Virus record (IMG/VR): IMGVR_UViG_3300028859_000013
Location: 32,001-96,000 of that record
Reading direction: 5' to 3' (one strand)
DNA length: 64,000 nt
DNA from: a virus
Part shown: piece by piece, positions 21,850 to 49,186 of the stretch
Layout of the letters: each line of letters starts with the position of its first letter
How positions within the stretch are numbered: position 1 is the first letter of the stretch
Program-made: the position numbers and the translations under genes
The notes under the pieces: model-generated
What the model saw: the letters and a program-made list of their open reading frames with translations, nothing else
Told to the model about the DNA's origin: nothing
Database searches by the model: none

Positions 21850-22251
21850 TTATATGTTAAATTTTTTAGTGCTTTTTGCTAATTCTAATTCAGTTTCTAA
21901 CTTGCCTTTTTTATGATTATATAAAGTGAATGATTGAGTTTTATTTATTTTCCGATCTGTCAACTCATACCATTTATTATTCATTTTTACTAATATATCA
22001 GATTCATAAGTACTTGATAGTTCATCTACTAATTTAATATCTTCACACCTCCCAGTTATACTTTTATTTATAGTTAAATAATTAAAATCATACTTATAAA
22101 TTTTAAAGCATTGAAATGTTATCATATGATTTAATATCATTTCAGAAATTAAATCAAAAAAATCAATATTATATGTTATGCAGTCATTCATTAAATTCAT
22201 GATTGATATTTCTGTGTTGCGTAAATCTTCAAAGGTTTTTATATATTTCAT
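21850..22251 (-). CDS. MKxxKxFE...KFNI family protein
   Basis: Starts MKYIKTFE, ends KKFNI. Confidence 0.7.
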   Translation of the reverse strand: MKYIKTFEDLRNTEISIMNLMNDCITYNIDFFDLISEMILNHMITFQCFKIYKYDFNYLTINKSITGRCEDIKLVDELSSTYESDILVKMNNKWYELTDRKINKTQSFTLYNHKKGKLETELELAKSTKKFNI

Positions 22252-22296
22252 GATATTATATATTAAATTAAATATTTATTTTTTATATATAATGCT

Positions 22297-22656
22297 ATGA
22301 AGCATTTAAAAATATATGAAGCATTTAAAGAATCTGATGTCAAAATAGGAAATTATGTAATATTAAACGTTAAATTTAAAGATTTTGGATATTCTTTATC
22401 TGATAATCAAAAAAATACTCTTGTCGAATATTTAAATAATACAATATGTGAAATTGTTAATATAACTACTAGTTATTCTGGTATCCAAGAGATAGATGTT
22501 AAATATAATAATATACCGTTTACTCTTAATGATTGGTTCGGTGTAGGAAGAACTATTACATTAGATATTACAGATATTTTTGATATGTCAGATTCAAAAA
22601 AAGAACTAATTGATAGACATAATTTAAGGCAAGTAGTAAATAAATTTAATATATGA
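22297..22656 (+). CDS. MKxxKxFE...KFNI family protein
   Basis: Starts MKHLKIYE, ends NKFNI; contains IGNYV. Confidence 0.7.
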   Translation: MKHLKIYEAFKESDVKIGNYVILNVKFKDFGYSLSDNQKNTLVEYLNNTICEIVNITTSYSGIQEIDVKYNNIPFTLNDWFGVGRTITLDITDIFDMSDSKKELIDRHNLRQVVNKFNI

Positions 22657-22958
22657 AGTATTTAAAAATATATGAAAAATATAATAATTTGCCTATTCTT
22701 GGTGATTATGTCGTAGTTTATTGTGAATCAATGAATGAAAAATTTAACGATTTTATAAATAATAATATTGGTAAGTTAAATAATTACGGTAGAATAACAG
22801 ATCTTGCTTGGGTTGAGTATTTTAATATTCCAGAAGAATTAAAAAAACATTTTGATGATGATAAATATGCTATACTTAATACAAATACTATTAAATATTT
22901 TTCTAGTGACAAAAAAAATGTAGAAGCGTATTTGAAAGCTCAAAAATTTAATATATAA
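22653..22958 (+). CDS. MKxxKxFE...KFNI family protein
   Basis: Starts MKYLKIYE, ends QKFNI; GDYV..NNIGK. Confidence 0.7.
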   Translation: MKYLKIYEKYNNLPILGDYVVVYCESMNEKFNDFINNNIGKLNNYGRITDLAWVEYFNIPEELKKHFDDDKYAILNTNTIKYFSSDKKNVEAYLKAQKFNI

Positions 22959-22961
22959 AAT

Positions 22962-23477
22962 ATGAAATTGAAAAGATTTAATGAAAGTGTTCATGAAGAT
23001 TATGTCGAAATACTTCAAGATAAAATTAAAAATGATAAAAAAATTATTAATAGATTTGAATTTTATTTTGATAACATGAGTAATACATTTGAATGGGATT
23101 CTGATAATATTACAATATTTGCAACTCCTTATTGGGAAGAAAATTTAAATTTACCTATTGATATTCTTATTGATGATACCGATCGTAATATTGTTTTTGA
23201 ATTAAAAGAATTAACTTCACAAAAAGACGTTGATAATACTATAAATTATTATTATGAAATAATAGATTCATTAACATTAAAATTAAATAAAATATCAGAA
23301 TTGAATAGTGTTATTCCTATTATATTAAATAAATTGAGTATTATAAAATTTGATAATATTATTATAAAATCTATTGACGATATAAAAAAATATGATATTG
23401 ATGAATTAGTAAAATTATATAATTACTTATATAAACAATATCCTGAAATATTTTTAGCTAAAAATTTTAATATATAA
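22962..23477 (+). CDS. MKxxKxFE...KFNI family protein
   Basis: Starts MKLKRFNE, ends KNFNI. Confidence 0.7.
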   Translation: MKLKRFNESVHEDYVEILQDKIKNDKKIINRFEFYFDNMSNTFEWDSDNITIFATPYWEENLNLPIDILIDDTDRNIVFELKELTSQKDVDNTINYYYEIIDSLTLKLNKISELNSVIPIILNKLSIIKFDNIIIKSIDDIKKYDIDELVKLYNYLYKQYPEIFLAKNFNI

Positions 23478-23480
23478 AAA

Positions 23481-23822
23481 ATGAAATATTTAAAAAAATT
23501 TGAAAGTTTCAATTGGAATTCTTTAATAGATATTAAAATAGGAGATTATGTGATAATTGATTCTAGTAAATTGTCAAATTTTATGATTAAAAATAATGTT
23601 GATATATATAGAAATTTTTTGAATAGTAATATAGGTAAAATTATTAATATTAGTCGTGTGCTTGATAATATTAGAGTTAAATATGAAAATATACCTGATA
23701 TTATTAAAGATTATTTTGAAGAAGATAATTCTATATTTTTACATCCGTCAAAAATAAAATATTTTTCTAAAACAATAGATGACTTAAAATTGAAATTAGA
23801 TACTGATAAATTTAATTTATAA
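23481..23822 (+). CDS. MKxxKxFE...KFNI family protein
   Basis: Starts MKYLKKFE, ends DKFNL; GDYV..NIGK, paralog of 22653. Confidence 0.7.
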   Translation: MKYLKKFESFNWNSLIDIKIGDYVIIDSSKLSNFMIKNNVDIYRNFLNSNIGKIINISRVLDNIRVKYENIPDIIKDYFEEDNSIFLHPSKIKYFSKTIDDLKLKLDTDKFNL

Positions 23823-23825
23823 AAA

Positions 23826-24521
23826 ATGAAATATTTAAAAAAATTTGAAGGATTGATAAAAACTTATGATTATAATATAATCATAAAATTATTAAATAAT
23901 TTACTTGTTAAATATAATGAAAATGATAGTAATATAAGGCAATCCGCACAAGGTATTTATGCTAGATTTTCAAAAAAATTCATTAAAAAATCATATCTTG
24001 ATATTTTAAATATATTGAAAGTTTGTGGTTATGTAATATCTTCATATAGTTATGATGAGAAAAAAAGAATTAATAAACAACCAGAAAATAATAATATTTT
24101 ATCTGATATTTATACATATATTAATTTTACACTTATAAAAAAGTTTGATATCGAAAATATAGATAATATAGATAATTTATATCACGTTACTGATAAAAAA
24201 AATATTAAAAATATATTAAAAAACGGATTAATTCCAAAATCAAATAATAAAATAGAATCACATCCAGATAGAATTTATTTAATGAGTAATTTAACTGGAG
24301 CTAATCATTATTTGCGATTACTAGAAGATAAATATGGAGATTATTCTGGCGATAGGTTTATAATATTAAAAATTAATAAAAAATTAATAAATATAAAATT
24401 ATATTATGACCCAATGTATCTTAGGTCAGAAAAAAACGTTGAAGTATCTGGATTTGACGCATTTTATACATATGATAATATTTCACCTGATTCTATAGAA
24501 TTACTTACTATTGATTATTAA
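23826..24521 (+). CDS. Putative ADP-ribosyltransferase-fold (KptA/DUF952-like) protein with capsid-targeting-like N-terminus
   Basis: LYHVT....I..ILKNGL.P, RIYL and terminal ISPDSI motifs; starts MKYLKKFE. Confidence 0.6.
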   Translation: MKYLKKFEGLIKTYDYNIIIKLLNNLLVKYNENDSNIRQSAQGIYARFSKKFIKKSYLDILNILKVCGYVISSYSYDEKKRINKQPENNNILSDIYTYINFTLIKKFDIENIDNIDNLYHVTDKKNIKNILKNGLIPKSNNKIESHPDRIYLMSNLTGANHYLRLLEDKYGDYSGDRFIILKINKKLINIKLYYDPMYLRSEKNVEVSGFDAFYTYDNISPDSIELLTIDY

Positions 24522-24691
24522 AAATATGTCATAGTTAATAGGTGTAATCTTTTTTTAAATTTACATTATAAATATCTTTAATTTTTGTATATGTTTCCTT
24601 CTATGAATTCTAATATAGAATCATAAAAAAGTTTCATATTTATTTTTTAATGTAAACAACATTATCACCAATTTTAATATTTTATGATATT

Positions 24692-25009
24692 TTATATTAA
24701 CCAATTATTTTCATCAATAATCTCAATTTCTAATATTATTTCATTATCTTTTTTTAAATATATTTTATTATCGTCCCATTTCTGATAAGTATTAACATTT
24801 AGTGTAATATTATTAAATAAACCAACAGTATATATTTTTTGATCTTTATTTAAACTTGGTAATTTATATAAACTACTATCACACAAAATAGTAGCAATAT
24901 TTCCATTTGTTTCTATATTATCAACATTTTCATCAATGTGTGATATGATATCATCTTCTAATTGTTTTTGTGATAAAATACCGGTTTTTTCTGTTATTTT
25001 AATTTTCAT
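24692..25009 (-). CDS. Hypothetical protein
   Basis: ORF coupled to 24999..25592. Confidence 0.5.
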   Translation of the reverse strand: MKIKITEKTGILSQKQLEDDIISHIDENVDNIETNGNIATILCDSSLYKLPSLNKDQKIYTVGLFNNITLNVNTYQKWDDNKIYLKKDNEIILEIEIIDENNWLI

Positions 25010-25592
25010 GTTTTTTAATTATTTTTATTATATAATATGCTTTTTCAGGAAACATTCCTATATCAATTAATGCTATTTTAATATTATTTTTATCATTTAA
25101 AGCATTTTCGTTAGTAGCTACAATGATACCTGGCTGATCAATATTAGTTTTATACCCAAATATGATTTCGTCATTTAAATATTCAGAAATAATGATAGGT
25201 ATATTAATATTTTTTTCATTTATAATATCTATTAAATCATTATTGTTTTTTGTGATATGTATTTTTTTAGGTATTATAATAAATTTATCATCATATCCAA
25301 TTTTGATAGTTGATTCTTTTAATATTTTAAAATTATCATTAATATAATTCGCTATTTCATCAATATTAATATTAATATTTGTTGAATTTCTTTTAATATC
25401 TTTAATTTTATTTATAAAAATTTTTTCAATAAGTTCAGGAATATTTTCTAAATCATCAATTTTAAACGTGCCTGCAGATACTGTCTTAGTATATACATTA
25501 TTATCTTCATTAACATATAGTAAAGATATTTTTTCTAAATTGTCAGTTTCTTTTACTGATATATAATCTAATGTTTTTATTTTTTCTAACAT
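24999..25592 (-). CDS. Hypothetical protein
   Basis: ORF preceded by AAAC-N16-TATATA. Confidence 0.55.
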   Translation of the reverse strand: MLEKIKTLDYISVKETDNLEKISLLYVNEDNNVYTKTVSAGTFKIDDLENIPELIEKIFINKIKDIKRNSTNININIDEIANYINDNFKILKESTIKIGYDDKFIIIPKKIHITKNNNDLIDIINEKNINIPIIISEYLNDEIIFGYKTNIDQPGIIVATNENALNDKNNIKIALIDIGMFPEKAYYIIKIIKKHEN

Positions 25593-25640
25593 ATCATTTT
25601 TATTTTAATATATATACTAATAAAAAATAAGTTTAAAAAT

Positions 25641-26384
25641 ATGAAGACATATATTCAATTTATAAATGAAGCAAGTATTGGAGATCTTTTTAAAAATCAA
25701 GTAGAACTATTTCTATCTAATGATAGAGAAGATAAACAATTGTTTGCTGAAAGTAAAACATTAGGTAAAAAAATTTTAGAAGATTCTACCATTGTACTTA
25801 AATGTAAAAATTATATAATTAATTCATTTTCTCAAATGGGATATGATAAATTAAGCATAGAAAATATAGAATTAACTTTTTATGAACCTGAAAATATAAT
25901 AGTCGGTATTATTCCAGATGGAGTTCTAAAAAATTTTGGTAAAACTGGTCATAGTGTATCTTTAAGAAAACTTAATATAATAGTTTTTGAAAAATCTCAA
26001 TGGAAAAATGATGTTGAAGGTTGGATAATACATGAAGTTGGTCATGTTATATCTTGGAGAGATTATAAAGATTCACCGAAAATAAAAAATGAATTTATTA
26101 CTGGAACTAAAGTCGATGCTAATTCTAATGTATTTGACTCAAAAGATTGCTTCGGTTATAATGGATATCCAAATGTTTGGTTCGAATATATACCATTTAT
26201 AAATCAAATTAAATTTTTATTGAAATCAAATTCTCCAGAAAATACAATTAGATTAATGATGAAAGATTATGAAGTAGAACATAATCCTGACGAATTGATG
26301 AAATATGAACAAATTTTTATAAATTATTTGAATTGCGTATTAGGTGAAAAAAGTGAAATAAAAAATAAATATATAACATTATAA
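25641..26384 (+). CDS. Putative zinc metallopeptidase with T4 capsid-targeting-like N-terminus
   Basis: HEVGH (HExxH); starts MKTYIQFINE. Confidence 0.6.
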   Translation: MKTYIQFINEASIGDLFKNQVELFLSNDREDKQLFAESKTLGKKILEDSTIVLKCKNYIINSFSQMGYDKLSIENIELTFYEPENIIVGIIPDGVLKNFGKTGHSVSLRKLNIIVFEKSQWKNDVEGWIIHEVGHVISWRDYKDSPKIKNEFITGTKVDANSNVFDSKDCFGYNGYPNVWFEYIPFINQIKFLLKSNSPENTIRLMMKDYEVEHNPDELMKYEQIFINYLNCVLGEKSEIKNKYITL

Positions 26385-26395
26385 AAATAATAAAG

Positions 26396-26773
26396 ATGAA
26401 AAAAATAAAAACATTCGAAAATTTTACAGCACAAAATGAAATTAATGTTATTATTGATACTTCTGCAAGTATGTCAGATGATCAATTACAAAAAGCTATA
26501 ACTGAAATAGATATGATAGATGATTACTGTTGTAATATTAATGTTATACAAGTATCAGATAAAATTGATGATGTTACTGTAATTAATAATATACATAATT
26601 TATTATATTTGAAATTTAAATTTGGTGCTGGAGGTTCTGATTTACGTGCAGCAATAGATTATATTATTGATAATGACTTAAATGATAATAAAACATATAT
26701 TATATCAGATTTCATTTTACCTAAAATAGATTTCTCAGAATTATCAGATTACGAAAAAATAGTAGTAGAATAA
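26396..26773 (+). CDS. Stand-alone VWA-like domain protein
   Basis: INVIIDTSASM, GGSD and IISD match the VWA of 10920..12506; starts MKKIKTFE. Confidence 0.7.
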   Translation: MKKIKTFENFTAQNEINVIIDTSASMSDDQLQKAITEIDMIDDYCCNINVIQVSDKIDDVTVINNIHNLLYLKFKFGAGGSDLRAAIDYIIDNDLNDNKTYIISDFILPKIDFSELSDYEKIVVE

Positions 26774-26814
26774 TTAATTTTATTCTTGATATATTATAAA
26801 ATAAAATATGAAAT

Positions 26815-27066
26815 ATGAAATACTTAAAAAAATATGAGATCGTTAATCAAAACCCAAAAATTGATGATTATGTTATTTTAAATGATATGCCATCAGTAAT
26901 AGGTAGAATAAAAGAAGTCAATAGAAATTTTACATATTATATTAAATTTATAGGTAATAGTTATATTACTGATAGAAGAGTTTTTTCAACATCTGAGATT
27001 AAATATTGGAGCGAGAATAAGAAAGAATTAGAGTTAATAGCTGATACAAATAAATTTAACATATAA
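26815..27066 (+). CDS. MKxxKxFE...KFNI family protein
   Basis: Starts MKYLKKYE, ends NKFNI. Confidence 0.7.
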   Translation: MKYLKKYEIVNQNPKIDDYVILNDMPSVIGRIKEVNRNFTYYIKFIGNSYITDRRVFSTSEIKYWSENKKELELIADTNKFNI

Positions 27067-27076
27067 TATTTAAAAA

Positions 27077-27565
27077 ATGAAGACATATATACAATTTATA
27101 AAAGAAGATAATAATTAAAAATTATCTGATGATAAATATGAAATTAAATATGAAAAATGGAAAAAATCAGATTATTCTGAATGTTATATGGCATATAACC
27201 TTTATAAAAATGATCAATTAGTAGCTGGTATTTCAAATGATAGTAAAGATAAAATGAAAGTTGTTGTTAGACACATTGAAAATTTTTCAACTGAAAAAGG
27301 AATGACAACAAAATTATTATTTATGTTGTTAGATATGAATGTTTCTATTGATACTGGTAAACCAAATTATAATTCAATTTCAACTACTGCATATAATATG
27401 AATAAAAAAATAGTGGAAATAATAAATAATAGTAAAGGTAAATATAAAGCAACTATTTTAGGTCCTGCTAATAATAAAGGCAAAGAAAATGAAGAAAAAT
27501 ATAAAGATGTCGCAGGTAAAAATACTAAATCAGATAATTATCATTATAGATTTCAAAAAATATAA
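27077..27565 (+). pseudogene. Capsid-targeting-like protein interrupted by in-frame TAA at codon 14
   Basis: MKTYIQFIKEDNN*KLSDDKYE... is in frame with track ORF 27188..27565. Confidence 0.6.
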
Positions 27566-27747
27566 TATATAAATCTATTATATATAAATATTTTTTTTTA
27601 CTTTTTCATTTTTTATTAAAATACTCAATATATAAGCACCTATTTAGGTAAATAAATTTATTTATTGGTTTTTTTCATTACAGTGTGTTAGATTTAATAT
27701 ATAGACTGAATTATATATTTAATTTATAAAAAATAATCTAATAAAAA

Positions 27748-28311
27748 ATGGGATTAGCACACTTTACAGCAGTGGATACGGCAAGAGAAAAATGGGAACC
27801 TATTCACAAGAATCTATACGAGACTACAATTATTTTACCAACTGTTCTCCAATCACTACATCCAAACGCAACACACTTACTTTTGGAAAATACAAAATCA
27901 GCAAAGTTTCCAGCTTATCCTGATTTATCAACTGGTGTTCAAAGATTTAAATACTCTACAAGAGTTTTTATTATGATGCCAGAAAAAACACATATAGATG
28001 ATTTATCTATTGTATTTAATCTTAACCAAAATGATGACTATCAAATATTTTGCTTTAAAATGCTAAAAGATTGGTACGATTTAGGCTGGAATAACGAAAC
28101 TGGTACTCTTCATTATAAGAAAAATACGGTTGGAGATATTATTATTCATGCTCATGATAAAGAAGGTAAAGTTATTCGTAGGGTAACATACCATAACGTT
28201 ATGATGAAAAGCTTTACAGGATTTGAAGATCTAAGTTGGGAAAGTTCAACTGATATTTTCGACCTTACTGCAAACTTCGTTGCAGATTATTGGGAAGATT
28301 TCTACTATTAA
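27748..28311 (+). CDS. Tail tube protein (T4 gp19-like)
   Basis: 187 aa; EP..KNLYE, W.DL, YKK, LSWE and F..DYW tube-like motifs; TTTAATATATA upstream; near sheath. Confidence 0.75.
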   Translation: MGLAHFTAVDTAREKWEPIHKNLYETTIILPTVLQSLHPNATHLLLENTKSAKFPAYPDLSTGVQRFKYSTRVFIMMPEKTHIDDLSIVFNLNQNDDYQIFCFKMLKDWYDLGWNNETGTLHYKKNTVGDIIIHAHDKEGKVIRRVTYHNVMMKSFTGFEDLSWESSTDIFDLTANFVADYWEDFYY

Positions 28312-28425
28312 AATTTTATGAATTTTTAAAAATTAATAGGTATAAAAACCTATTAATTTTTAAATTTTTAGATTACTGGGAAGAAAATAAATTAAACAAA
28401 AAACAAAAAATCATATATATAAAAT

Positions 28426-29112
28426 ATGAAAAAAATATGTAGAATTTGTAAAGAAAATAAAGAATTAAGTGAGTTTCATAAAAAATGTAATACTTTTGAT
28501 GGTCATAGAAGTGAATGTAAAGAATGTATTAAAGATATTCAAAAAAAATATAAAGAAAAACCTGATTTTAAAGAAAAAAGAAAAGAATATGATAAAGATC
28601 GTTATGATGAAAATAGAGAAAAAATATTAGATAGGAAAAAAGAATATCACATTGAAAACAGAGAAAAAATATTGGAGAAAAAAAAGGAATATCATAGTAA
28701 ACCAGAAGTAAAAGAAAAAATGAAGGATTATAGTAAATATTATAGAACAGAATGTAAAGATAAGTTTTATAAGTATAGGAACAACAATCCTCACATTATA
28801 GTATGGCGTTCGGTATTAAATTCCACGTTAAAGAGATTAGGAACTATGAAGGAGGGTAACACGATAGATATATTAGGTTATTCTGCATTAGAGTTAAAGG
28901 AGCACATTGAGAATTTATTTACTCCTGGAATGACTTGGAATAATCATGGTGATTGGCATATAGATCATATAATAGGTGTTATAAATTTTACCAGTGATTC
29001 TGACATTAGGGAAGTATGTTCATTAAGTAATTTACGTCCATTATGGTCGACTACGAGGGAGATAGATGGTATAATATATGAAGGAAATTTAAACAGGAGT
29101 AAGATTAATTAG
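28426..29112 (+). CDS. HNH homing endonuclease
   Basis: N-terminal CxxC..CKEC; GMTWNNHGDWHIDH..NLRPLW. Confidence 0.78.
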   Translation: MKKICRICKENKELSEFHKKCNTFDGHRSECKECIKDIQKKYKEKPDFKEKRKEYDKDRYDENREKILDRKKEYHIENREKILEKKKEYHSKPEVKEKMKDYSKYYRTECKDKFYKYRNNNPHIIVWRSVLNSTLKRLGTMKEGNTIDILGYSALELKEHIENLFTPGMTWNNHGDWHIDHIIGVINFTSDSDIREVCSLSNLRPLWSTTREIDGIIYEGNLNRSKIN

Positions 29113-29124
29113 AAAAAGATTCCA

Positions 29125-37324: not shown

Positions 37325-37576
37325 AAAACTAAATAAAATGAAAATATAAAAATTTGAAGCATATAAATATAGAGGTAAAAAATTAGATATTATAAATAGA
37401 AAGGAATTTATAAGTGTAATTTCTTCATCTTTTGCATCTGATATGTTTGAATTCCAAAATAATGGAAATAGTTATTATACTGATTCAGAAATTTTACTAA
37501 TTTATTTGATGAATAATGAAACAGGAGAAGAAAAAACAATTAGATTGGATTTATCTGATATGGGAATTGAAATAGG

Positions 37577-38944
37577 TAGTATTTAATATCTTTAATTAAA
37601 TCAATGAAAAACAATGATTTTTTAATGAATATTTTCATTAAAATTATTATAAACTTTAAATTAAAATAATACTATAAATTAAATGTTAAAGGCAATTAAA
37701 ATAAGACTGTATCCAAGTGAAGATAAAATTATTGATATAAATAAATTGATTGGATCTGCACGATTTGTTTATAACAAATGTCTTAGTTTTAAATCAATTG
37801 AATATGGGTTATTTAATACTTCAACAGGCATAGGTCAAACAAACAAACACTACATAGAATTAAAAACTAAATATTCATGGCTTGGTGAAGCACACTCAAA
37901 GGTAATGCAACAATCCATGATGAATCTTGAACAGGCCTTTAGTAATTTCTTTAAAGACCTAAAGAAAGGTGATAAAAAGATCGGAGTTGGTTACCCAGAC
38001 TTCAAGAAAAAGAAATTTAAAGAAACATGTAGATTTCCAAGTGATGCGATATCAAGTGTCAAAGGAAATAGAATTAATATCATTAAATCTTTAAAAAATA
38101 TTCATTTTAAATGTTCCGTAAGTGATGAAAAATACCTAAACAAACATCAAAAAGAAATTAAATCAGGGACGTTAACTAAGACTAAATCAGGACATTATAT
38201 ATTTAGTATTTTAATTGATCGTCCAAATAAAACTTTAAAGAAAGCTACAAATGATGTCATTGGTTTAGATTTAGGCATTAAGGATTTCATCGTAACGTCC
38301 GAAGGACAAAAGTATGAAAATCTTAAAATTAAAAGAAAGAATGAAGTCAAATTATCAAGACTTTACAGGCAATTATCAAGAAAAAAGAAAGGTTCGAAGA
38401 ATAAAAATAAGACAAGGATAAAGCTTGCTAAGTTTCATGAAAAATTAAATAATCAAAAAGAATACTACTTACATCAAACGGTGAATCAAATCCTTAGTGA
38501 AAACCAAACTATCGGTATTGAAAACCTTAATGTAAAAGGCATGATGAAAAATCATAATTTAGCTAAATCTATCCAGGAAGTGTCCTGGTCAAGGTTTAGA
38601 ACGATATTAACCTATAAATCTGAATGGTATAACCGTGAAGTAATTGTTGTTGATAGATTTTTCGCTTCCACTAAACTATGTAGTGAGTGTGGTTACAAAA
38701 ATGATGACTTGACGTTGAAAGATAGATTCTGGATTTGCCCTAAGTGCGGTAAATTACATGATCGTGACATCAATTCAGGAATAAATATTAAAATAGAAGT
38801 AATTAGAATTAAAATAGGACTGAGTTCACCCAAATCAACGCTTCAGGAGAGTAAATCCATTAGATCCTCTGTGAATGAAGAAACAAACAGTAAAAGACCT
38901 AAAATGATTAAACAGTGATTTCATTGTTTTTCATTATTTTACCG
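37577..38944 (+). mobile_element. Non-autonomous tnpB-only element (IS607/IS200-IS605-like)
   Basis: Interrupts a gene; perfect 15-bp subterminal inverted repeat AATGAAAAACAATGA (37603-37617 / 38921-38935); no tnpA, no TSD. Confidence 0.75.
37683..38918 (+). CDS. tnpB: TnpB RNA-guided endonuclease
   Basis: KIRLYP HTH, RuvC-I GLDLG, RuvC-II IENL, CxxCG..CPxCG Zn finger, RuvC-III HDRDINSGINI. Confidence 0.93.
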   Translation: MLKAIKIRLYPSEDKIIDINKLIGSARFVYNKCLSFKSIEYGLFNTSTGIGQTNKHYIELKTKYSWLGEAHSKVMQQSMMNLEQAFSNFFKDLKKGDKKIGVGYPDFKKKKFKETCRFPSDAISSVKGNRINIIKSLKNIHFKCSVSDEKYLNKHQKEIKSGTLTKTKSGHYIFSILIDRPNKTLKKATNDVIGLDLGIKDFIVTSEGQKYENLKIKRKNEVKLSRLYRQLSRKKKGSKNKNKTRIKLAKFHEKLNNQKEYYLHQTVNQILSENQTIGIENLNVKGMMKNHNLAKSIQEVSWSRFRTILTYKSEWYNREVIVVDRFFASTKLCSECGYKNDDLTLKDRFWICPKCGKLHDRDINSGINIKIEVIRIKIGLSSPKSTLQESKSIRSSVNEETNSKRPKMIKQ

Positions 38945-39115
38945 AACTATGGAATGGTATGATGAAGATGAGATAGAAAACCATGATGATTTAGGAGTAT
39001 TTACTCCAGAAAGAAATTTAGATGAAGATATAACAAAAGCATATAAATCTAATAAAAAAGATTTTACAAAATTTAACATATAAAATAATTTAAACATTAT
39101 TTATAAAAAATAATA

Positions 39116-42091: not shown

Positions 42092-42130
42092 CTTTTTTTA
42101 TATAATATATAAGAAAGTAGAAAATAAAAT

Positions 42131-42156
42131 AAACAAAATACAAATTTAAATATATA
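42131..42156 (+). promoter_or_regulatory. AAAC-N16-TATATA promoter of the leader/tRNA operon
   Basis: Exact spacing shared with six other sites in the window. Confidence 0.65.
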
Positions 42157-42163
42157 CAATATC

Positions 42164-42262
42164 ATGAACAACATTAGTAGAAATATCACAGCAGTCACAA
42201 CAACAACTACCCCCGCAGGAGGCAGACCAGTCGTGTATTTGGGTGATAATAATCTAAGTTGA
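42164..42262 (+). CDS. Putative attenuator leader peptide MNNISRNITAVTTTTTPAGGRPVVYLGDNNLS (not in ORF track)
   Basis: GC-rich run of Thr/Ala/Val/Pro/Gly/Arg codons between promoter and terminator, upstream of tRNAs. Confidence 0.75.
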   Translation: MNNISRNITAVTTTTTPAGGRPVVYLGDNNLS

Positions 42263-42290
42263 TATTTTTATAAAATATTTTAATAGTGTT

Positions 42291-42333
42291 AAAAACCCAA
42301 AGATGATTATTCAACTTTGGGTTTTTTCTTTTT
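42291..42333 (+). terminator. Conditional intrinsic terminator (attenuator)
   Basis: AAAAACCCAAAG / CTTTGGGTTTTT stem plus U tract; its 5' arm can instead pair with TTTGGGT at 42238-42244. Confidence 0.8.
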
Positions 42334-42345
42334 AAATAATTAATT

Positions 42346-42423
42346 GGTCCTGTATTGGCAGAATTTCCTAAATTCTATGTGCATAATGGAATGAAAATGA
42401 GAGTTCAAATCTCTTCTGGACTA
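42346..42423 (+). tRNA. Atypical tRNA-Arg(CCT), D-arm absent, long variable region
   Basis: Acceptor GGTCCTG/CTGGACT; AGAAT-TTCCTAA-ATTCT; T-arm GAGAG-TTCAAAT-CTCTT. Confidence 0.65.
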
Positions 42424-42433
42424 CAATAAACAT

Positions 42434-42494
42434 CGGGAGTATGTGGTAGTGTCTCGGGTACCGACACAAGAAAGTTCGACTCTTTCTCTTCCGA
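42434..42494 (+). tRNA. 61-nt D-armless tRNA-Pro-like RNA (anticodon uncertain, CGG or GGG)
   Basis: C1-G72/A73 acceptor; GTGTC-TCGGGTACC-GACAC; T-arm GAAAG-TTCGACT-CTTTC. Confidence 0.5.
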
Positions 42495-42511
42495 CAAAGG
42501 TTGAATTAAAT

Positions 42512-42584
42512 ATGGATGTAGTTCAGTAGGTAGAATGCTTGGTTTGGGACCAAGTGGTCGGGATTTCGAGCATCCCCATCCATA
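42512..42584 (+). tRNA. tRNA-Pro(TGG)
   Basis: ATGGATG/CATCCAT acceptor; CTTGG-TTTGGGA-CCAAG. Confidence 0.85.
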
Positions 42585-42595
42585 CATATAATAAT

Positions 42596-42672
42596 AGTCC
42601 TGTAATGGCATGGTTTTCTAAACCATAAGTGCATAACGGATGTGAATGTGGGTTCGAATCCCATCAGGATTA
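42596..42672 (+). tRNA. Atypical tRNA-Arg(TCT), D-arm absent, long variable region
   Basis: AGTCCTG/CAGGATT; ATGGT-TTTCTAA-ACCAT; GTGGG-TTCGAAT-CCCAT. Confidence 0.7.
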
Positions 42673-42681
42673 CAAAAATAA

Positions 42682-42756
42682 GGGGGCTCATGTTCCAAGG
42701 CTCGGCGATGAATATTTGCAATATTTGTGAGGTGAATCCGATTTTCACAGTCTCCA
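42682..42756 (+). tRNA. tRNA-Ala(TGC)
   Basis: GGGGGCT/AGTCTCC with G3-U70, loop TTTGCAA, A73. Confidence 0.8.
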
Positions 42757-42790
42757 CTATTTTTTGTTGGGTTCAAAATGATTATAATTT

Positions 42791-42865
42791 GCAGATATAG
42801 TATAACGGCTAGTACATAACATTGCCAATGTTAAGATACCTTTTCGAGTAAGGTTATCTGCTCCA
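42791..42865 (+). tRNA. tRNA-Gly(GCC)
   Basis: GCAGATA/TATCTGC; TAACA-TTGCCAA-TGTTA; U73 and encoded CCA. Confidence 0.88.
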
Positions 42866-42961
42866 AGTATTTATGGACATTTTTTATTAATAAGTGAAAA
42901 TAATAGTTCGTTTTTGAGTTTATGCTCATCAATATTTTTATATATACAAATAAAAAGTTGT

Positions 42962-44131
42962 ATGGTAGAATATTGTAAATTTTGTGGTAAAGACATTAAG
43001 GATTTAAAGCCAACACAAAAAGGTCAGCATGTTGCAAATTGTAGCATGAATCCAAATATAAAAATAATTAAGGATAAAAGAGCATTATCAAAAATAGAAA
43101 CACAGAGAGCAAAAAATCCAATATTGAAAATTAAGTTGAGATGCTTAAATTGTAATGAGGAATTTGAAATTGATGTGATTGAAAGTTATTATAAACGTGG
43201 TAGGTATAAAAAATGTTGTTGCGAAAAATGTGCAAAGCAATATTCAACAAAAAATTATGATGACGATATATTAAAAAAAGATTTTTGTAAAGAATGTGGA
43301 GAAGAATTTTTAGTTAAAAATAGAACAAAAATAGGTATATCAACATGTACAAAATGTAGAAAATTAAAAAGAAATAGAGGCAAAAATATAAAAAATATTA
43401 ATAAAAAACTTGGTGATAAAAATATTATAGAAAAAATATTAGTATGTAAATTTTGTGGTGACGAAAAATGTAAAAAACCAGAAGTGTGTTCAAAATTTAG
43501 ACAAAAAAATAATGTTTATGAAAAATATTTAGGTTTTGATAGTAGTAAAAAAGGAAATAATGATGTGTATACTGAGTTTGATAGAATTATAAATGAATTA
43601 AAATTTGATTATTTTGATAAAGAATTGTCTATTGTTGAAATAAGCAAAAAGTATAATATGAATTATAAATCTATGTATTTAATATTTAAAAAGAATAATA
43701 TTGTTATTAGAACATTTTCTGAAGCTGTAATGAATTCTATTAAAAATGGAAAAATAAATTATAATAATATAGTGCAATATCCATATAAATCTGGAATGTA
43801 TATAACATGGAAAGGTGATAACGTACATTATAGAAGCAATTATGAGAAAGAATATTATTCTATTTTGGATGATAAAAAAGTGAATTATGAAGTTGAAAGT
43901 TTAAGAATACAATATTATGATACACAAAAGAAAAAAATAAGAATTGCAATACCAGATATTTATATTAAAGAAATAAATGAAATTATTGAGATAAAAAGTA
44001 AATGGACTTTGAATGAAATAAATATGAAAGATAAAGTAAAATCATATAAAAAACTAGGATATAATGTTAGATTGATTGTTGGTGAAGGAAATAAGAATTT
44101 TTTTAAAAATACAATTGATATAATATATTAA
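42962..44131 (+). CDS. Putative homing endonuclease (Cys-rich, TnsA-like PD-(D/E)xK) inside the tRNA cluster
   Basis: Multiple CxxC; YRSNYE..YE..PDIY..IEIK; likely start ATG 42962. Confidence 0.72.
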   Translation: MVEYCKFCGKDIKDLKPTQKGQHVANCSMNPNIKIIKDKRALSKIETQRAKNPILKIKLRCLNCNEEFEIDVIESYYKRGRYKKCCCEKCAKQYSTKNYDDDILKKDFCKECGEEFLVKNRTKIGISTCTKCRKLKRNRGKNIKNINKKLGDKNIIEKILVCKFCGDEKCKKPEVCSKFRQKNNVYEKYLGFDSSKKGNNDVYTEFDRIINELKFDYFDKELSIVEISKKYNMNYKSMYLIFKKNNIVIRTFSEAVMNSIKNGKINYNNIVQYPYKSGMYITWKGDNVHYRSNYEKEYYSILDDKKVNYEVESLRIQYYDTQKKKIRIAIPDIYIKEINEIIEIKSKWTLNEINMKDKVKSYKKLGYNVRLIVGEGNKNFFKNTIDIIY

Positions 44132-44136
44132 AATAT

Positions 44137-44207
44137 GCAAAATGTAGCTTAACGGTAAAGTATCTGATTTCCAATCAGAAGACGGGGCTCAACACCCACA
44201 TTTTGCT
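44137..44207 (+). tRNA. tRNA-Gly(TCC), divergent T-arm
   Basis: GCAAAATG/CATTTTGC; TCTGA-TTTCCAA-TCAGA. Confidence 0.75.
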
Positions 44208-44214
44208 CATAATC

Positions 44215-44287
44215 AGGACTTTAGCTCAGTTGGTAGAGCGCAACTATTACAAAGTTGATGTCATCGGTTCGATTCCGATAAGTCCTA
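44215..44287 (+). tRNA. tRNA-Val(TAC)
   Basis: Canonical cloverleaf; CAACT-ATTACAA-AGTTG. Confidence 0.88.
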
Positions 44288-44298
44288 CGAAAATAATT

Positions 44299-44369
44299 GC
44301 ACTTATCGTATAATGATATTACTTTGGCGTTGTATACCAAAAATTTCGGTTTGATCCCGAATAGGTGCT
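44299..44369 (+). tRNA. tRNA-Thr(TGT)
   Basis: GCACTTA/TAGGTGC, loop GTTGTAT, divergent T-loop. Confidence 0.7.
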
Positions 44370-44413
44370 CAATAAAATAAACTTTTATTTTATTTTTTAA
44401 TATATAAACATAT

Positions 44414-44486
44414 GCCATTATGATGTAATGGATTAGCATTAAAACCTTCTAAGTTTTTCGTCAGCGTTCGAATCGCTGTAATGGTA
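44414..44486 (+). tRNA. tRNA-Arg(TCT), canonical
   Basis: GCCATTA/TAATGGT; D-loop AATGGATT; AAAAC-CTTCTAA-GTTTT. Confidence 0.88.
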
Positions 44487-44493
44487 CAAAAAT

Positions 44494-44523
44494 AAAAATC
44501 AATCATTATTATGATTGATTTTT
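44494..44523 (+). terminator. Terminator closing the tRNA cluster
   Basis: AAAAATCAATCAT / ATGATTGATTTTT. Confidence 0.75.
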
Positions 44524-44642
44524 ATTTTTAATTAAATAATTTTTACAAATTGAATTTATTTCCGTTATATAAAAGTTCTAATTTTTCAGGTAATTTATAT
44601 ATTTTCACATTATATTATATATTAATTTTTATATATAGATTT

Positions 44643-45347
44643 ATGGAATATATTAAGAATTATAATAATTACAATGATGATATAATTTTAGAAAAATTAA
44701 ATCTTAAATCTCTTTTAGATACATTTAAATCGTTGAATAGTAAAAAAGTAGCTACTTTTATAGTAGGTGGACTTTTGACTATGATGACTGTTACACAAAC
44801 AATAAATTATATAAACAATTTAAATTTAAATGCTAATCAGAAAATAACATTAATACATACTGTTGATAAATTTAAAGATCCATTAAGTTTTGGAGTTAGT
44901 AATTTTATATATGAGCATATCAAAAACCACGAAAAATTAAAATTAAAGGCATATAGATTAAAAGATAATAAAATAACTATAGGATTTGGTCATGCTGAAA
45001 ATATTGGAGAATCTAAATTTAAAATTGGAGATCAAATAACTAAAGAACAAGCAGATCAATTATTTGAACAAGATTTACAATTTGCATATGATGGAGTTAG
45101 ACGTATATTTAAAGAATGGAATAAAAAAGGAATCAATATAAAATTAACACAAAATCAGTTTGATGTTTTAGTGTCATTAGCATTTAATATGGGAATTGAT
45201 AATTTAAGAACTTCAGATTTTATTCAAGCATTAAAACGTAAAGATATTAAGAATGCATCAGAATTGATAAAAATTACTGGATTACGTGATGGATTTGCTG
45301 GATTAGTTGATAGAAGAGAAGAAGAATATAATATATTTATATCATAA
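44643..45347 (+). CDS. GH24 phage lysozyme with N-terminal extension
   Basis: HE..L.AY....TIGFGH, LTQNQFD.LVSLAFNMG and GLVDRREEE; start ATG 44643. Confidence 0.85.
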   Translation: MEYIKNYNNYNDDIILEKLNLKSLLDTFKSLNSKKVATFIVGGLLTMMTVTQTINYINNLNLNANQKITLIHTVDKFKDPLSFGVSNFIYEHIKNHEKLKLKAYRLKDNKITIGFGHAENIGESKFKIGDQITKEQADQLFEQDLQFAYDGVRRIFKEWNKKGINIKLTQNQFDVLVSLAFNMGIDNLRTSDFIQALKRKDIKNASELIKITGLRDGFAGLVDRREEEYNIFIS

Positions 45348-45376
45348 AAAAGAGATTCAAATGAATCTCTTTTTAT

Positions 45377-45685
45377 TTATTTTAATCCTTTAAGATTATC
45401 AATTTGTTCAGTTAGCCATTTCATATCAAAATTTTGATATACATTTTTTTTAACATACTCTAATGCTGATATTCTTTCATTAAGTATATTATTTTCTATT
45501 AGACCTTTAATTTTTTCAACTAATTCTTCTTTACCATTAATGGTAATATCTTTATCAATTGAATTATCGTTTGTAATTTTAATAGAAATTGATTCATCTA
45601 TTAAATCATAAATCTGATTTCTCAAAGTATCTTTGGCTTCATACTTTTTTTCAATTACGTCTTCTATTTTACTAAATTTTATCAT
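45377..45685 (-). CDS. Hypothetical protein
   Basis: ORF. Confidence 0.5.
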   Translation of the reverse strand: MIKFSKIEDVIEKKYEAKDTLRNQIYDLIDESISIKITNDNSIDKDITINGKEELVEKIKGLIENNILNERISALEYVKKNVYQNFDMKWLTEQIDNLKGLK

Positions 45686-45848
45686 ATTTATTTATTTATT
45701 TTTTCAGATAAGTATTTTCCACCTTTTTTAAAGTATCTTCATGACTATATATCTTTGTTAAATCCAATCCAATTTCTCTAATTTTTTTTCTTTTTCTATA
45801 AGCTATTTTTTAAACTCTTTCAAATGTTTCATTTTTATATATTTATTT

Positions 45849-46115
45849 TCATTTGTAAGTATATCCTGATCTATTTGCCCAAATAAGTCCAGTAATTTGC
45901 ATATATGTTACTCCATTTGCCATAATAGCTGGATATGTATTTACCATAGTTGTACCTGTTATATATGGATATTCGTATTTCAATACTGTACCATCAATTG
46001 ATGCTCTTTTAATTGACCATATTGAGTCTGTATCTTGAGTGCCTGGTGTCGCATATCCATAATATGTTGTTCCACTTTCATCAGAAGGATCAACTCTTAA
46101 AAGTTCCATTCCCAT
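45849..46115 (-). CDS. Small hypothetical protein (possible virion component)
   Basis: TYYGYATPG..WSIKR..W.NR..Y.Y pattern; TATATA upstream. Confidence 0.5.
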   Translation of the reverse strand: MGMELLRVDPSDESGTTYYGYATPGTQDTDSIWSIKRASIDGTVLKYEYPYITGTTMVNTYPAIMANGVTYMQITGLIWANRSGYTYK

Positions 46116-46201
46116 AATTTATATTTTTCTTTTATATATAAAAAAAATCATTTCATATTTATGTATATATAAAAAAAACTTATAATTAAATTATAAGTTT
46201 T

Positions 46202-46566
46202 TGGTGGAGATGTCGGCATACAATAGCCGAGTCCAATATTGCCTTTCAGCATTTTCTACAAGTTTAGTTCATTTTTTCTAAAATAAACAAAAATACATAA
46301 TTTTTAAATGATAATTATTAAATTCATCAAACATTTTTACACCTTAAAATAGTTTGCTAACAAGGTTTCTGATTTTAGACCGATTAGGCTACTAAAACTT
46401 CATTACCAACAACAGCTTCAGAAACTGCGAAAGTTGTATTAGAAGTTAAAATATGCGTATGTGCTTTGCCATTTAAATTTTACCCATTAATTTATTAATC
46501 GCTGATAGATAATGCGATACTTGCTGATAACCTTATTCTACATTACTGTCAAAATCGTTCATCCCC
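46202..46566 (-). ncRNA. ssrA: tmRNA
   Basis: 5' GGGGATG..TTGACAG; 3' CATCTCC-ACCA with G3-U; internal tag ORF 46470-46384 ending LVA*. Confidence 0.88.
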
Positions 46567-46586
46567 TTTTGAACTGTATATAGTAA

Positions 46587-46859
46587 TTAAAAAATATAAA
46601 GTTTTTCTATTTTTTCTAATTTTAATTTTCTGACTTCATTTTTATATAATAATTTTTCATCATATGTTTCACTATCTGAAAAATTTTTAATTATACTATT
46701 TATATAATCTTTATTATTCTCATATCTTGGTAGAACATCAATTGAATCATCGTTATTTTTTCTAAAAAAAATATCACCTTTATTCAAATCTATAATTTCA
46801 ATAGCATATAATGATATTGTATTATTTATTTTTTGCACACTAAATTTTTCAGTTATCAT
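46587..46859 (-). CDS. Hypothetical protein with RKLKLEKI motif
   Basis: ORF. Confidence 0.5.
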   Translation of the reverse strand: MITEKFSVQKINNTISLYAIEIIDLNKGDIFFRKNNDDSIDVLPRYENNKDYINSIIKNFSDSETYDEKLLYKNEVRKLKLEKIEKLYIF

Positions 46860-46860
46860 A

Positions 46861-47232
46861 TTATTCGTTTAATTTTGAACTTATATCATTTTTAATTTCT
46901 TCTGCAGTTATATTTGGATATTTTTCTTTAATAGATAAATATAATCTATCTCTATCATCTTTTAGTTTTTCTATTTTATCATAGAATGGTTGAATTATAT
47001 TTTGAATAGATTTAATTTCTCTTTCTAAATATATTAATTTTTCATTTAAATCCATTGTTTTTCTAATATCATTCGCATCGGATTGAACAATAGTTTTCAT
47101 TTCATCTTGAATTTTCTGAAATGCTTCTTTTTTTTTCATTATTATAGGTTCTTGATCTACAATTTCTTTTAAGTTTTGAAGATAATATTTCCTAATTCTT
47201 ACTGCTTCATTAATATATTGATCATTAATCAT
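46861..47232 (-). CDS. Coiled-coil hypothetical protein
   Basis: ORF in operon. Confidence 0.55.
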   Translation of the reverse strand: MINDQYINEAVRIRKYYLQNLKEIVDQEPIIMKKKEAFQKIQDEMKTIVQSDANDIRKTMDLNEKLIYLEREIKSIQNIIQPFYDKIEKLKDDRDRLYLSIKEKYPNITAEEIKNDISSKLNE

Positions 47233-47629
47233 TTTCTATATTTCTTTTTTCAATTAAATATGCAACATATTCTTCGTCTGACATTGTGTTTGTTGACTTA
47301 TTTTCATCATTCTTAACAGTATCAGGAATTAATTCATTTTCAGTTTCATATTTCATTTTATACCATTCATCAATATCGAAATCTACATCTTCGATTCTAT
47401 CGTTTAATCCGTATTCATTATATTTTGAAATTAAATATCCAACATCAACAGTTTTACCTATTGTACCAGAGAAATAATCAATTAAAAAACTTGAAATAGT
47501 AGAAAAATCTTCCAATTCTATAGCTCTATCTATATAATAATCAGAAAGATATCCTGCCATTTTGATAATCTTCATTTCATATTCTTTTAATTTCCTAACT
47601 GAATCTAATTTTTTATTAATTTTACTCAT
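47225..47629 (-). CDS. Hypothetical protein
   Basis: ORF in operon. Confidence 0.55.
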   Translation of the reverse strand: MSKINKKLDSVRKLKEYEMKIIKMAGYLSDYYIDRAIELEDFSTISSFLIDYFSGTIGKTVDVGYLISKYNEYGLNDRIEDVDFDIDEWYKMKYETENELIPDTVKNDENKSTNTMSDEEYVAYLIEKRNIEND

Positions 47630-47638
47630 TTGTGTTAT

Positions 47639-48394
47639 TTATTTTTTAAGTTCGTTATCAATAATTGTTTTAAGTTGATTATATATCTCATTTTTTAATT
47701 TAGTTGGATCTTTTATTATTTTTTCTGATATTAATGTTGCGTAATATTCAACAGCATCAGCTTCTACATTTTCTTGAATCATTCCAATAAAATTAGGATT
47801 AGGAATCATTTCTTCTATAGGAATACTCATTTTTATTGAATAATTACTTTTAAACATATTAAACATCATTTTAATAGGATCAACTTTTGGTTCTTCTTTT
47901 TTTATTTCTATTGGTTTATCGCCATTTAAAAATTTTTCATCATCAATTTCATCCCAATTTTTTTCTTGTACACTTGGTATATCTGCACCTGGCATATTTT
48001 GTCTCCATTCATCTAGCATTGCTTTCTTTTGTTGCGGAGTTAAATTTACTGAGCCTTCAACCTGTTTTTGTTTTACTTGAGATTGAGACATAGAATTATC
48101 AGATAATACAACAGGTTCTTCAATGAATTTTACTTTAGCTCCAGATGTTGGATTGTCTGTTATTTTACTAGTATCTAAATTTTTTAGTTGTTGAGCCATA
48201 TTCATTAATGGATCACTAGACGGAGCTTGAAAAAAAGAGTCAGGATTTATAGATTCTTCTATCATATCATATTTTTTGGCTAATACATCTTTTTTGATAC
48301 TTACATTATCACTTAATACATAGAAATTAGTATCCTCTTTTACAATACTAACTCTTTCTCCTGTTTGTTTATTTATAAAAACACTATTCGGCAT
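47639..48394 (-). CDS. Hypothetical protein
   Basis: ORF in operon. Confidence 0.6.
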   Translation of the reverse strand: MPNSVFINKQTGERVSIVKEDTNFYVLSDNVSIKKDVLAKKYDMIEESINPDSFFQAPSSDPLMNMAQQLKNLDTSKITDNPTSGAKVKFIEEPVVLSDNSMSQSQVKQKQVEGSVNLTPQQKKAMLDEWRQNMPGADIPSVQEKNWDEIDDEKFLNGDKPIEIKKEEPKVDPIKMMFNMFKSNYSIKMSIPIEEMIPNPNFIGMIQENVEADAVEYYATLISEKIIKDPTKLKNEIYNQLKTIIDNELKK

Positions 48395-48462
48395 AATTTT
48401 AATTTATTTTTATTATATATATTGAAATATAGTATCTATAAAAAAAAAGTTTTAAATAATAG

Positions 48463-48738
48463 ATGAAATATATAAAAACATTTGAAGAAAAATTATATCA
48501 ACCTGGTAAAAAATTGTTATGTATTAATAATAACGTTGGTGAATTAGAAGATAAATATGATTTTACTATTGGTAAATTTTATAATATACATGAATATGAA
48601 TCTTGGTGGATATCATTTATAGATGATAAAGGAGTTGCACAATTTTTTAAACCTTCAGATGTTTCTAAAAATTTTTCAACTGCTTAAAGTTTAGAAGAGT
48701 ATGAAATAATAAAAAATACTAATAAATTTAATATATAG
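48463..48738 (+). pseudogene. KFNI-family gene with in-frame TAA at 48685-48687
   Basis: MKYIKTFE...FSTA*SLEEYEIIKNTNKFNI*. Confidence 0.7.
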
Positions 48739-48742
48739 ATTT

Positions 48743-49186
48743 ATGATAACAAAATTTAAAATTTTTGAGGATGTAGATTATGATGAATCTAAATATATTG
48801 GAAAGTTTTGTGCTTTAAAATCAGATGATAATGATATAAAAATGACTATATCTTTATGTACTCGTGTAGATTTTCACGATGATTTTAGTGTGTTTGCTGT
48901 ATTTGATTGTTTTGATATTGATAAAAATGATAATATTAGTGATCCAGTAGGTGATCATGAAAATTTTACTAAAGATGAATTTAAAAAAATTAATTTTATG
49001 ACATCAATTGAATTTTATAATAGTCATAAAGATATTTGTGAGAAATTATATTTTAAAATTAGTGAAGATATTAAAAAAATAGGATTAGAATATTGGAAAC
49101 TCTTAATATTAAGAGATTATAAAAAAGTATTAGATACAATACCTTATTTTAAGTTTTTTGTTGATTCTGATAAATTCAATATATAA
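48743..49186 (+). CDS. MKxxKxFE...KFNI family protein
   Basis: Starts MITKFKIFE, ends DKFNI. Confidence 0.7.
   Translation: MITKFKIFEDVDYDESKYIGKFCALKSDDNDIKMTISLCTRVDFHDDFSVFAVFDCFDIDKNDNISDPVGDHENFTKDEFKKINFMTSIEFYNSHKDICEKLYFKISEDIKKIGLEYWKLLILRDYKKVLDTIPYFKFFVDSDKFNI

Follow-up and report, generated by a model that had tools for sequence, protein, structure and literature searches.

We analysed the ends of a group of small genes in the virus record IMGVR_UViG_3300028859_000013, within a window of 64,000 nucleotides that corresponds to bases 32001-96000 of a 111,323-bp IMG/VR virus contig (gene positions below are those of the window, unless a related locus is named). A preliminary description of this DNA had named nine genes that end in (K/N)FN(I/L)-stop, and had pointed out that the codons of this ending spell TTTAATATATA, a putative late-promoter motif that also occurs between genes. 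Our results indicate that the ending K-[FY]-N-[IL]-COOH is likely to be a protein-level C-terminal tag, carried by small proteins of unrelated folds in a subclade of AT-rich megaphages, and that the likeness of the tag DNA to a gene-start signal is mostly a by-product of codon usage. All nine genes were verified, seven of them intact and two broken, and the whole contig contains 17 intact tagged genes. The contig has a GC content of 23% and an estimated completeness of 16%. It encodes a tail sheath protein (16068-19733; PHROG tail sheath, E 3e-74) and a tail-tube-like protein (27748-28311), the best relatives of which belong to the huge uncultured phages LR756501 (735 kb, 49% identity) and LR756502; the 735-kb genome has been described (PMC7162821). 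Judging from the sheath and from the tube-like protein with its relatives in huge phages, the contig is a fragment of a very AT-rich megaphage.

To describe the tag beyond a single contig we used 43 related IMG/VR loci (21-30% GC), gathered with a profile of the subfamily of tagged proteins that has an SH3-like core. Among 1129 distinct open reading frame products from these loci and the present contig, 312 end in x[FY]N[ILVM], with KFNI (114) and KFNL (109) as the dominant forms, followed by KYNL (44) and KYNI (26), and 305 of the 312 conform to [FY]-N-[IL]-COOH. Any other C-terminal tetrapeptide occurs at most five times in the same set. The complete tag logo reads [ATS]-[NK]-K-[FY]-N-[IL]-COOH and is preceded by a weak amphipathic helix. 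The other end of the proteins is also shared: nearly all tagged genes begin with an N-terminal motif, MKYLKxFE, which had been overlooked in the preliminary description. It is carried by 25 genes of the contig, and the logo obtained from the 312 tagged proteins is M-K-x-[LI]-K-x-[FY]-E. An exhaustive profile search recovered 2685 cluster representatives at E <= 0.001, and when the ends were read in 153 proteins (150 listed representatives plus earlier hits) 144 of them finished in K[FY]N[ILVM], mostly KYNL, an ending that is unable to spell the DNA motif. No paper describing a KFNL, KFNI or KYNL end tag was found in the searchable literature. The tag system is real, widespread and undescribed.

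The level at which the ending is conserved was examined in 76 ortholog-like pairs with a median identity of 66%. The results showed a strict conservation of two residues, as the Lys and the Asn of the tag were identical in 76 of 76 pairs, while Phe and Tyr were exchanged in 4 pairs and Ile and Leu in 31. It had been proposed that the ending is a C-terminal docking or ejection signal, and this conservation backs a signal at the protein level. The synonymous sites behaved differently from what a DNA signal was expected to give. The tag Asn used the same codon in a fraction of 0.63 of the comparisons, versus 0.84 for Asn elsewhere in the same genes, and the tag Phe in 0.70 versus 0.87; only Ile was conserved, with a fraction of 1.00 (18/18) versus 0.75. 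Since Phe and Asn codons vary synonymously more in the tag than in the gene bodies, the stretch that would write TTTAAT is freer than average, and only the last codon is constrained in the DNA. The synonymous AAC and TTC variants that had been reported in the tags were seen here as well.

The position of the tag at the very end of the protein appears to matter. In two natural tandem fusions (P0011 and P0144), built of two or three SH3-like units, the tags inside the protein have degenerated to KLQV and KYGL; at the C-terminus one fusion retains KYNL, and the other has KYNMK, with its tag copy a single residue short of the end. From this pattern of decay, a free carboxyl end is probably needed by the tag. 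The tag is also retained on genes that are last in their operon and lie ahead of a terminator. One such gene is 21850-22251 on the minus strand, beyond the end of which a terminator-like hairpin is found at 21815-21853, the only such hairpin between 21000 and 29000. The tag is a transferable end-label on binder-type scaffolds.

The genes of an array follow each other closely, so that the C-terminal tag, the stop/start and the N-terminal motif form a junction that is repeated over about 40 nt. Within the contig, identical stretches of up to 32 nt are shared by pairs of junctions, and 20 of 153 pairs have at least 15 nt in common, as compared to 3 of 400 control gene starts. It is conceivable that these gene ends are maintained as homology for unequal crossing-over, as parts of a recombination cassette; an expansion and shuffling of cassette-like genes had already been suggested. 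In syntenic relatives with 77-87% nucleotide identity the array order is kept and orthologs are 62-81% identical, yet whole tagged cassettes differ between them, and arrays expand and contract by cassettes. One extra cassette (L016:9442-9696) has a 49-nt perfect junction repeat on both flanks, the longest repeat in its locus. The other 11 of the 12 cassette indels, however, have flanking repeats no longer than the background of the locus, and near-identical loci from different samples were 100% identical and gave no information on indels. Gain and loss of whole cassettes thus stands from the earlier suggestion, while junction homology is a plausible means of cassette turnover that was seen in a single event. 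Homogenisation of neighbouring tags was weak as well: the I/L state is shared at chance level (p 0.11), F/Y (p 0.04) and the Asn codon (p 0.011) somewhat more, and only the type of stop codon clusters strongly. The synonymous sites of the tag are not homogenised, and lineages that differ in codon choice still keep the protein motif. We therefore find it quite unlikely that recombination is what maintains the tag, and the junction homology more likely results from the protein tags than is what they exist for.

A known parallel is provided by the promoter-early stem-loop (PeSL) cassettes of T4-like phages, in which short conserved sequences at gene boundaries of hyperplastic regions supply homology for the gain, loss and swap of cassettes (PMC2839356, PMC4122927). 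Cassette indels are found in our arrays too, but the PeSL is a non-coding composite of terminator and promoter, whereas the repeat described here is coding (C-terminal tag plus N-terminal motif) and has no stem-loop, for which the junctions, -4 to +4 nt long, leave no space. A long flanking repeat was also present at one indel only (1 of 12).

The tagged proteins differ widely between their ends. With the termini trimmed, the 25 contig proteins that carry the tag or the N-terminal motif fell into 19 groups unrelated by BLAST. The commonest core, present in the products of the genes at 22297, 22653, 23481 and 26815 among others, is SH3-like. An AlphaFold model of the 23481-23822 product gave an SH3/Tudor-like barrel (pLDDT 83) with low-confidence termini (pLDDT 54 for the first 10 residues and 52 for the last 3), and a Foldseek comparison of this model with the PDB returned only weak Tudor, KOW and Sm-like matches (E >= 0.03), with no functional lead. 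Among the 100 longest tagged proteins of the relatives, 20 are ankyrin-repeat and 7 leucine-rich-repeat (LRR) proteins; a single-sequence AlphaFold model of one of the ankyrin-type proteins (L032:15496-16263) was of low confidence (pLDDT 41). Pfam and PHROGs scans of ten window proteins with the tag or the N-terminal motif assigned no family to the tagged ones and matched only the product of 26396 (DUF2201/VWA-like), and a tblastn search of a phage collection with 26815-27066 gave no match. Several DUF7487 proteins were also noted, at 5198-6229 and 19847-21601 in the window and at L034:1781-3361, and the last of these (526 aa) bears a KFN tag. The N-terminal motif alone is carried by the VWA-like protein and by proteins of the contig that, read by eye, may be Nudix-like and aldolase-like.

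These data bear on a simpler view, in which the genes form an ordinary paralogous family and owe their common ends to descent, as structural parts of a single fold that evolves fast. The SH3-like core of several members and the sheer size of the family in the profile search are what such a view predicts. It does not account for the same ends on ankyrin, LRR and DUF7487 proteins or for the N-terminal motif on its own on a VWA-like protein; the termini of the SH3-like model were of low confidence, and in the fusions the internal tags decayed and the copy at or next to the C-terminus was kept. We consider this view very unlikely.

Next to the protein tag, the window contains a DNA element that has to be separated from it. 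It had been stated that TTTAATATATA lies between genes upstream of the sheath, tube-like and 5198 genes, and we confirmed it at 16036, 27693 and 5183. In the window TTTAATATATA occurs 11 times, versus 1.85 expected, and in the contig 14 times, with 11 of the 14 copies situated 4-44 nt upstream of an ATG on the same strand. The motif proved to be a subset of a broader element, a T-run followed by ATATATA, the generality of which had escaped the preliminary description. In a pooled logo from the contig and its relatives the element consists of a T-run, A or T, ATATATA, and then mostly A, G or C. ATATATA is found within 60 nt upstream of 57 of the 162 called genes (9.4 expected), and the distance between the element and the ATG has two sharp peaks in the contig and its relatives, one at 4-7 nt (59 genes) and one at 19-22 nt (58 genes). 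The T-run plus ATATATA is a real gene-start signal, both oriented and positioned. Sites in the window include those at 5183, 9690, 22257, 22285, 28415 and 44631; the leader of the 5198 gene is of the short-spacing kind, ATATATAGATT-ATG. The large gene at 2569-5127, which by eye resembles a ribonucleotide reductase, ends 70 nt before this gene.

In LR756501 and LR756502 (32-33% GC), too, ATATATA precedes the tube orthologues, and most ATATATA copies in a 40-kb region sit upstream of genes. Tag-like gene ends are nearly absent from the same two genomes, with 2 and 8 pattern hits versus 3 and 2 for the control. As the signal is present in two complete genomes that nearly lack the tag, it is not confined to phages with the tag and does not depend on it. 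A natural reading of the element would be that of a -10-like promoter sequence, and on this reading the short-spacing class might give rise to leaderless or nearly leaderless mRNAs. Shine-Dalgarno-like sequences are nearly absent upstream of the genes.

We then compared the tag codons with this signal. Exact TTTAATATATA was spelled by 15 of 116 xFNI tags, as compared to 32 expected from background codon usage, or 18 when the expectation was restricted to tags that end in TAA or TAG; in the present contig it was spelled by 3 of 10 tags, in line with an expectation of about 0.33 per tag. ATATATA lies inside 27 of the 312 tags, and when one member of an ortholog pair had this spelling it was shared by the other in 2 of 11 pairs and discordant in 9. 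Moreover, the tag Asn is encoded by AAC in 43% of the cases versus 12% in the background, and AAC disrupts the motif. The resemblance follows mostly from codon usage, because at 23% GC the simplest way to write K-F-N-I-stop is AAA TTT AAT ATA TAA.

One constraint on the DNA is real: the last codon has A in its third position (ATA, TTA or CTA). The tag Ile is ATA in 92% of the tags, versus 46% in the background and 41% of last-codon Ile in untagged genes, and the tag Leu is TTA or CTA in 94%. Ile had been described as always ATA; the bias holds (9 of 10 in the contig), with one ATT exception outside the window. Concurrently, TGA is the stop codon of 162 of the 312 tags, as compared to 20% in the background, and 147 of these 162 tags overlap the next gene as ATGA, with Ile encoded by ATA in 70 of 70 such cases; 22656/22653 is an instance in the window. 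The A is kept largely because about half of the tags end in NNA-TGA, where A and TG together form the next ATG, and what had been taken as a promoter-type constraint on ATA is thus mostly this stop/start overlap. Such an overlap could provide translational coupling within operon-like, tightly packed arrays. The window contains tRNA genes for Pro-TGG, Gly-GCC, Val-TAC, Arg-TCT and Met-CAT (42512-44487 and 52446-52519), and no phage tRNA fitting the tag codons ATA, TTA or AAC was found in it.

At some junctions the tag may nevertheless have been put to a second use. Among tags that end in ATA-TAA or ATA-TAG and have a nearby next gene, those with AAT left a gap of 3-4 nt in 8 of 13 cases, whereas those with AAC had a gap of at most 2 nt in 15 of 16 (Fisher p 0.003; 0.002 versus all other TAA-type tags). 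With AAT and a 3-4 nt gap, ATATATA comes to lie 4-5 nt from the ATG, which is the canonical distance. Both the spelling and the spacing of the signal are found at three window junctions: 22958/22962 and 23477/23481, where the final codons spell TTTAATATATA (22947-22957 and 23466-23476) 4 nt before the next ATG, and 48738/48743, where TTTAATATATAG (48727-48738) sits 5 nt before the ATG. The last of these has the rare TAG stop and copies the intergenic element of 5183 and 44643, which confirms the earlier observation that the 48724 junction is nearly identical to the intergenic stretch at 5181. A minority of junctions, including these three, may have been co-opted as internal start signals. As the spelling is not kept between orthologs, a lasting role of the co-opted junctions is unlikely.

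It had been put forward that each tagged gene carries the promoter of the next one. As a possible co-option at a few junctions this idea survives; as the reason for the conservation of the tag it does not, the spelling being rare, not kept and synonymously free. Stated as a general rule, with the last codons conserved as a promoter or leaderless-start signal and the peptide as a by-product, it can point to KFNI-TAA spelling a T-run plus ATATATA, to the three junctions with intergenic-like spacing, to the Asn codon co-varying with that spacing and to the copied stretch at 48724, but it is already contradicted, and hardly credible, since TGA is the stop of half of the tags, half have Leu as their last residue and a quarter contain Tyr, KYNL prevails in the wider family, terminal genes ahead of a terminator retain the tag, and the 48743-49186 gene is directly followed by a separate T-run plus ATATATA (49192-49198) that serves the 49224 gene.

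The tagged genes of the window and the associated elements are listed in Table 1. In one of the two broken genes, a TnpB-only IS200/IS605-type element (37597-38941) lies within the body and divides it. The element is bounded by 21-nt inverted repeats (37597-37617 and 38921-38941) that are 90% complementary; its tnpB (37683-38918) matches OrfB_IS605 and Cas12f1-like TNB domains. Stop-codon recoding was considered for the two in-frame TAA codons and rejected, as TAA terminates most genes (127 of 162) and, in one of the two cases, the gene has in addition been interrupted by the insertion.

Table 1. Tagged genes, related genes and gene-start elements in the window
Feature	Position	Strand	Remarks
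Intergenic TTTAATATATA	5183-5193	+	4 nt before ATG of DUF7487 gene 5198-6229
Intergenic TTTAATATATA	16036-16046	+	21 nt before tail sheath gene 16068-19733; second copy at 15978-15988
Tagged gene, 133 aa	21850-22251	-	MKYIKTFE start; KFNI end (AAA TTT AAC ATA TAA); last gene of unit
Intergenic TTTAATATATA	22257-22267	-	5 nt upstream of ATG of 21850-22251 gene
T-run + ATATATA	22285-22291	+	5 nt upstream of 22297, first gene of the + strand array
Tagged gene, 119 aa	22297-22656	+	KFNI end (ATA TGA); ATGA overlap gives ATG of 22653 gene
Tagged gene, 101 aa, SH3-like core	22653-22958	+	KFNI end (AAT ATA TAA)
Tagged gene, 171 aa, unrelated middle	22962-23477	+	NFNI end
Tagged gene, 113 aa	23481-23822	+	KFNL end (TTA TAA), without ATATATA
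Gene with N-terminal motif only, 231 aa	23826-24521	+	MKYLKKFE; no C-terminal tag; last gene of array
HExxH protein	25641-26384	+	MKTYIQFINE start; TTTAATATATA upstream at 25604-25614
VWA-like (DUF2201) protein, N-terminal motif only	26396-26773	+	Pfam match; directly after 25641-26384
Tagged gene, 83 aa, SH3-like	26815-27066	+	KFNI end (AAC ATA TAA); next gene 121 nt away
Intergenic TTTAATATATA	27693-27703	+	44 nt before tail-tube-like gene 27748-28311
Broken tagged gene	37338-39083	+	TAA as codon 4 (37347-37349); KFNI-TAA end at 39069-39083
Broken tagged gene	48463-48738	+	In-frame TAA at 48685-48687; remainder reads ...NTNKFNI-TAG (48724-48738)
Tagged gene, 147 aa	48743-49186	+	KFNI end (TTC AAT ATA TAA)

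With regard to function, the role that we consider most likely for the tag is that of a short docking peptide, which would be read via its free carboxyl end. Possibly, binder-type proteins are loaded into the capsid by the tag together with an N-terminus that resembles the capsid-targeting sequence (CTS) of T4; the tag could also anchor the proteins to a shared hub, much as the C-terminal tails of adaptors do. A docking role is favoured by the likeness of the N-terminal motif to the CTS, by the MKTYIQFINE start of the 25641-26384 product, and by the location of the arrays between the sheath and tube genes, with the same upstream element. The T4 CTS has the sequence MKTYQEFIAE (PMC8442874), in which residues 4 and 7 drive targeting, and the T4 protein Alt is processed at both ends (PMC9026906). 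As in the internal proteins IPI-III and Alt and the polymorphic internal-protein loci of T-even phages, small proteins that evolve fast and are otherwise unrelated here share a short conserved terminal peptide, again in a phage with a contractile tail. The N-terminus is shared over about 10 residues and resembles MKTYQEFIAE, and MKTYIQFINE is identical to it at 7 of 10 positions, including an I-x-E protease-type site. The differences are also clear: our tag is C-terminal and has no equivalent in T4, and the main N-terminal motif, K-x-[FY]-E, is without the [LI]-x-E cleavage site (no L/I at P3), so that only the 25641 product has I-x-E.

Other systems in which a short or constant C-terminal element is placed on variable proteins offer further comparisons. 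Encapsulin cargo-loading peptides are short C-terminal peptides that dock unrelated cargo proteins onto the inner face of a shell, which has the same HK97 fold as phage capsids. The tag is likewise a short C-terminal peptide common to unrelated proteins, but the encapsulin consensus is rich in Gly, Ser and Leu, and the capsid gene is not on the contig. Class II PDZ ligands end in hydrophobic-x-hydrophobic-COOH, and the adaptor SspB has a C-terminal tail that binds ClpX. [FY]-N-[IL]-COOH fits the PDZ pattern and the motif decays when it is not terminal, and the carriers of the tag are binder scaffolds (ankyrin, LRR, SH3-like), as in adaptor proteins. The strictly invariant Lys and Asn are, in contrast, atypical of PDZ ligands. 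In the ankyrin proteins of poxviruses a C-terminal PRANC/F-box-like end links variable repeat domains to a common machine. These proteins resemble ours in being a large viral multigene family with variable repeat-type binding domains and a constant C-terminal element, but PRANC belongs to a eukaryotic virus that uses the host ubiquitin system and folds as a domain of about 40 residues, and here the element is a phage peptide of 4-6 residues.

As a tentative proposal, to which we give clearly less credence than to the tag itself, the two-ended label could serve megaphages as an as yet undescribed system for addressing cargo. It would direct hundreds of ankyrin, LRR and SH3-like binders into the capsid for co-injection, or onto a hub such as a protease, from arrays coupled by ATGA overlaps, the junctions of which would occasionally act as leaderless starts and as cassette homology.

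A number of observations weigh against the docking role, or against other parts of the explanation favoured here. No match over the cut-off was obtained for a PDZ_2 domain or for a T4-type prohead protease (Peptidase_S77) in the contig and five related records, but all of these are fragments (16-70% complete). The tagged proteins are mildly acidic (median pI 5.7 versus 6.7 for untagged proteins), unlike the basic internal proteins of T4, and with about a quarter of all genes they would be much distinct cargo for one capsid, again unlike T4. On the DNA side, tags without a nearby downstream gene still had an ATA bias of 85% (p 5e-5) and an AAC excess of 40%. As these biases persist without a downstream neighbour, the ATGA overlap is only part of the explanation; possible causes of the remainder are turnover of the junction type, a preference for the more accurately read Asn codon at an invariant residue, and inheritance through duplication. 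The notion of AAC as an accurate codon would fit the tube gene, with 45% AAC, but not the sheath gene, with only 6%. The use of AAC ranges from 1/16 to 9/9 between loci, and since arrays grow by duplication the codon counts are not independent. Similarly, the statistics on co-option rest on about 30 junctions that are related by descent.

Taken alone, the spelling of a promoter by gene ends is mostly ordinary and can be ascribed to AT-rich codon usage and stop/start overlap. Less ordinary is a megaphage subclade in which about one protein in four carries a C-terminal label of 4-6 residues, on binding scaffolds that are unrelated. The two-peak spacing of ATATATA leads to a testable model of transcription and translation starts in uncultivated phages. 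If the label is indeed an address or docking tag, it would provide a compact targeting peptide for engineering and a simple handle, by peptide pull-down or tag swap, for finding the machine that reads it, and it would show how giant phages organise arsenals of small proteins that are probably directed at the host.

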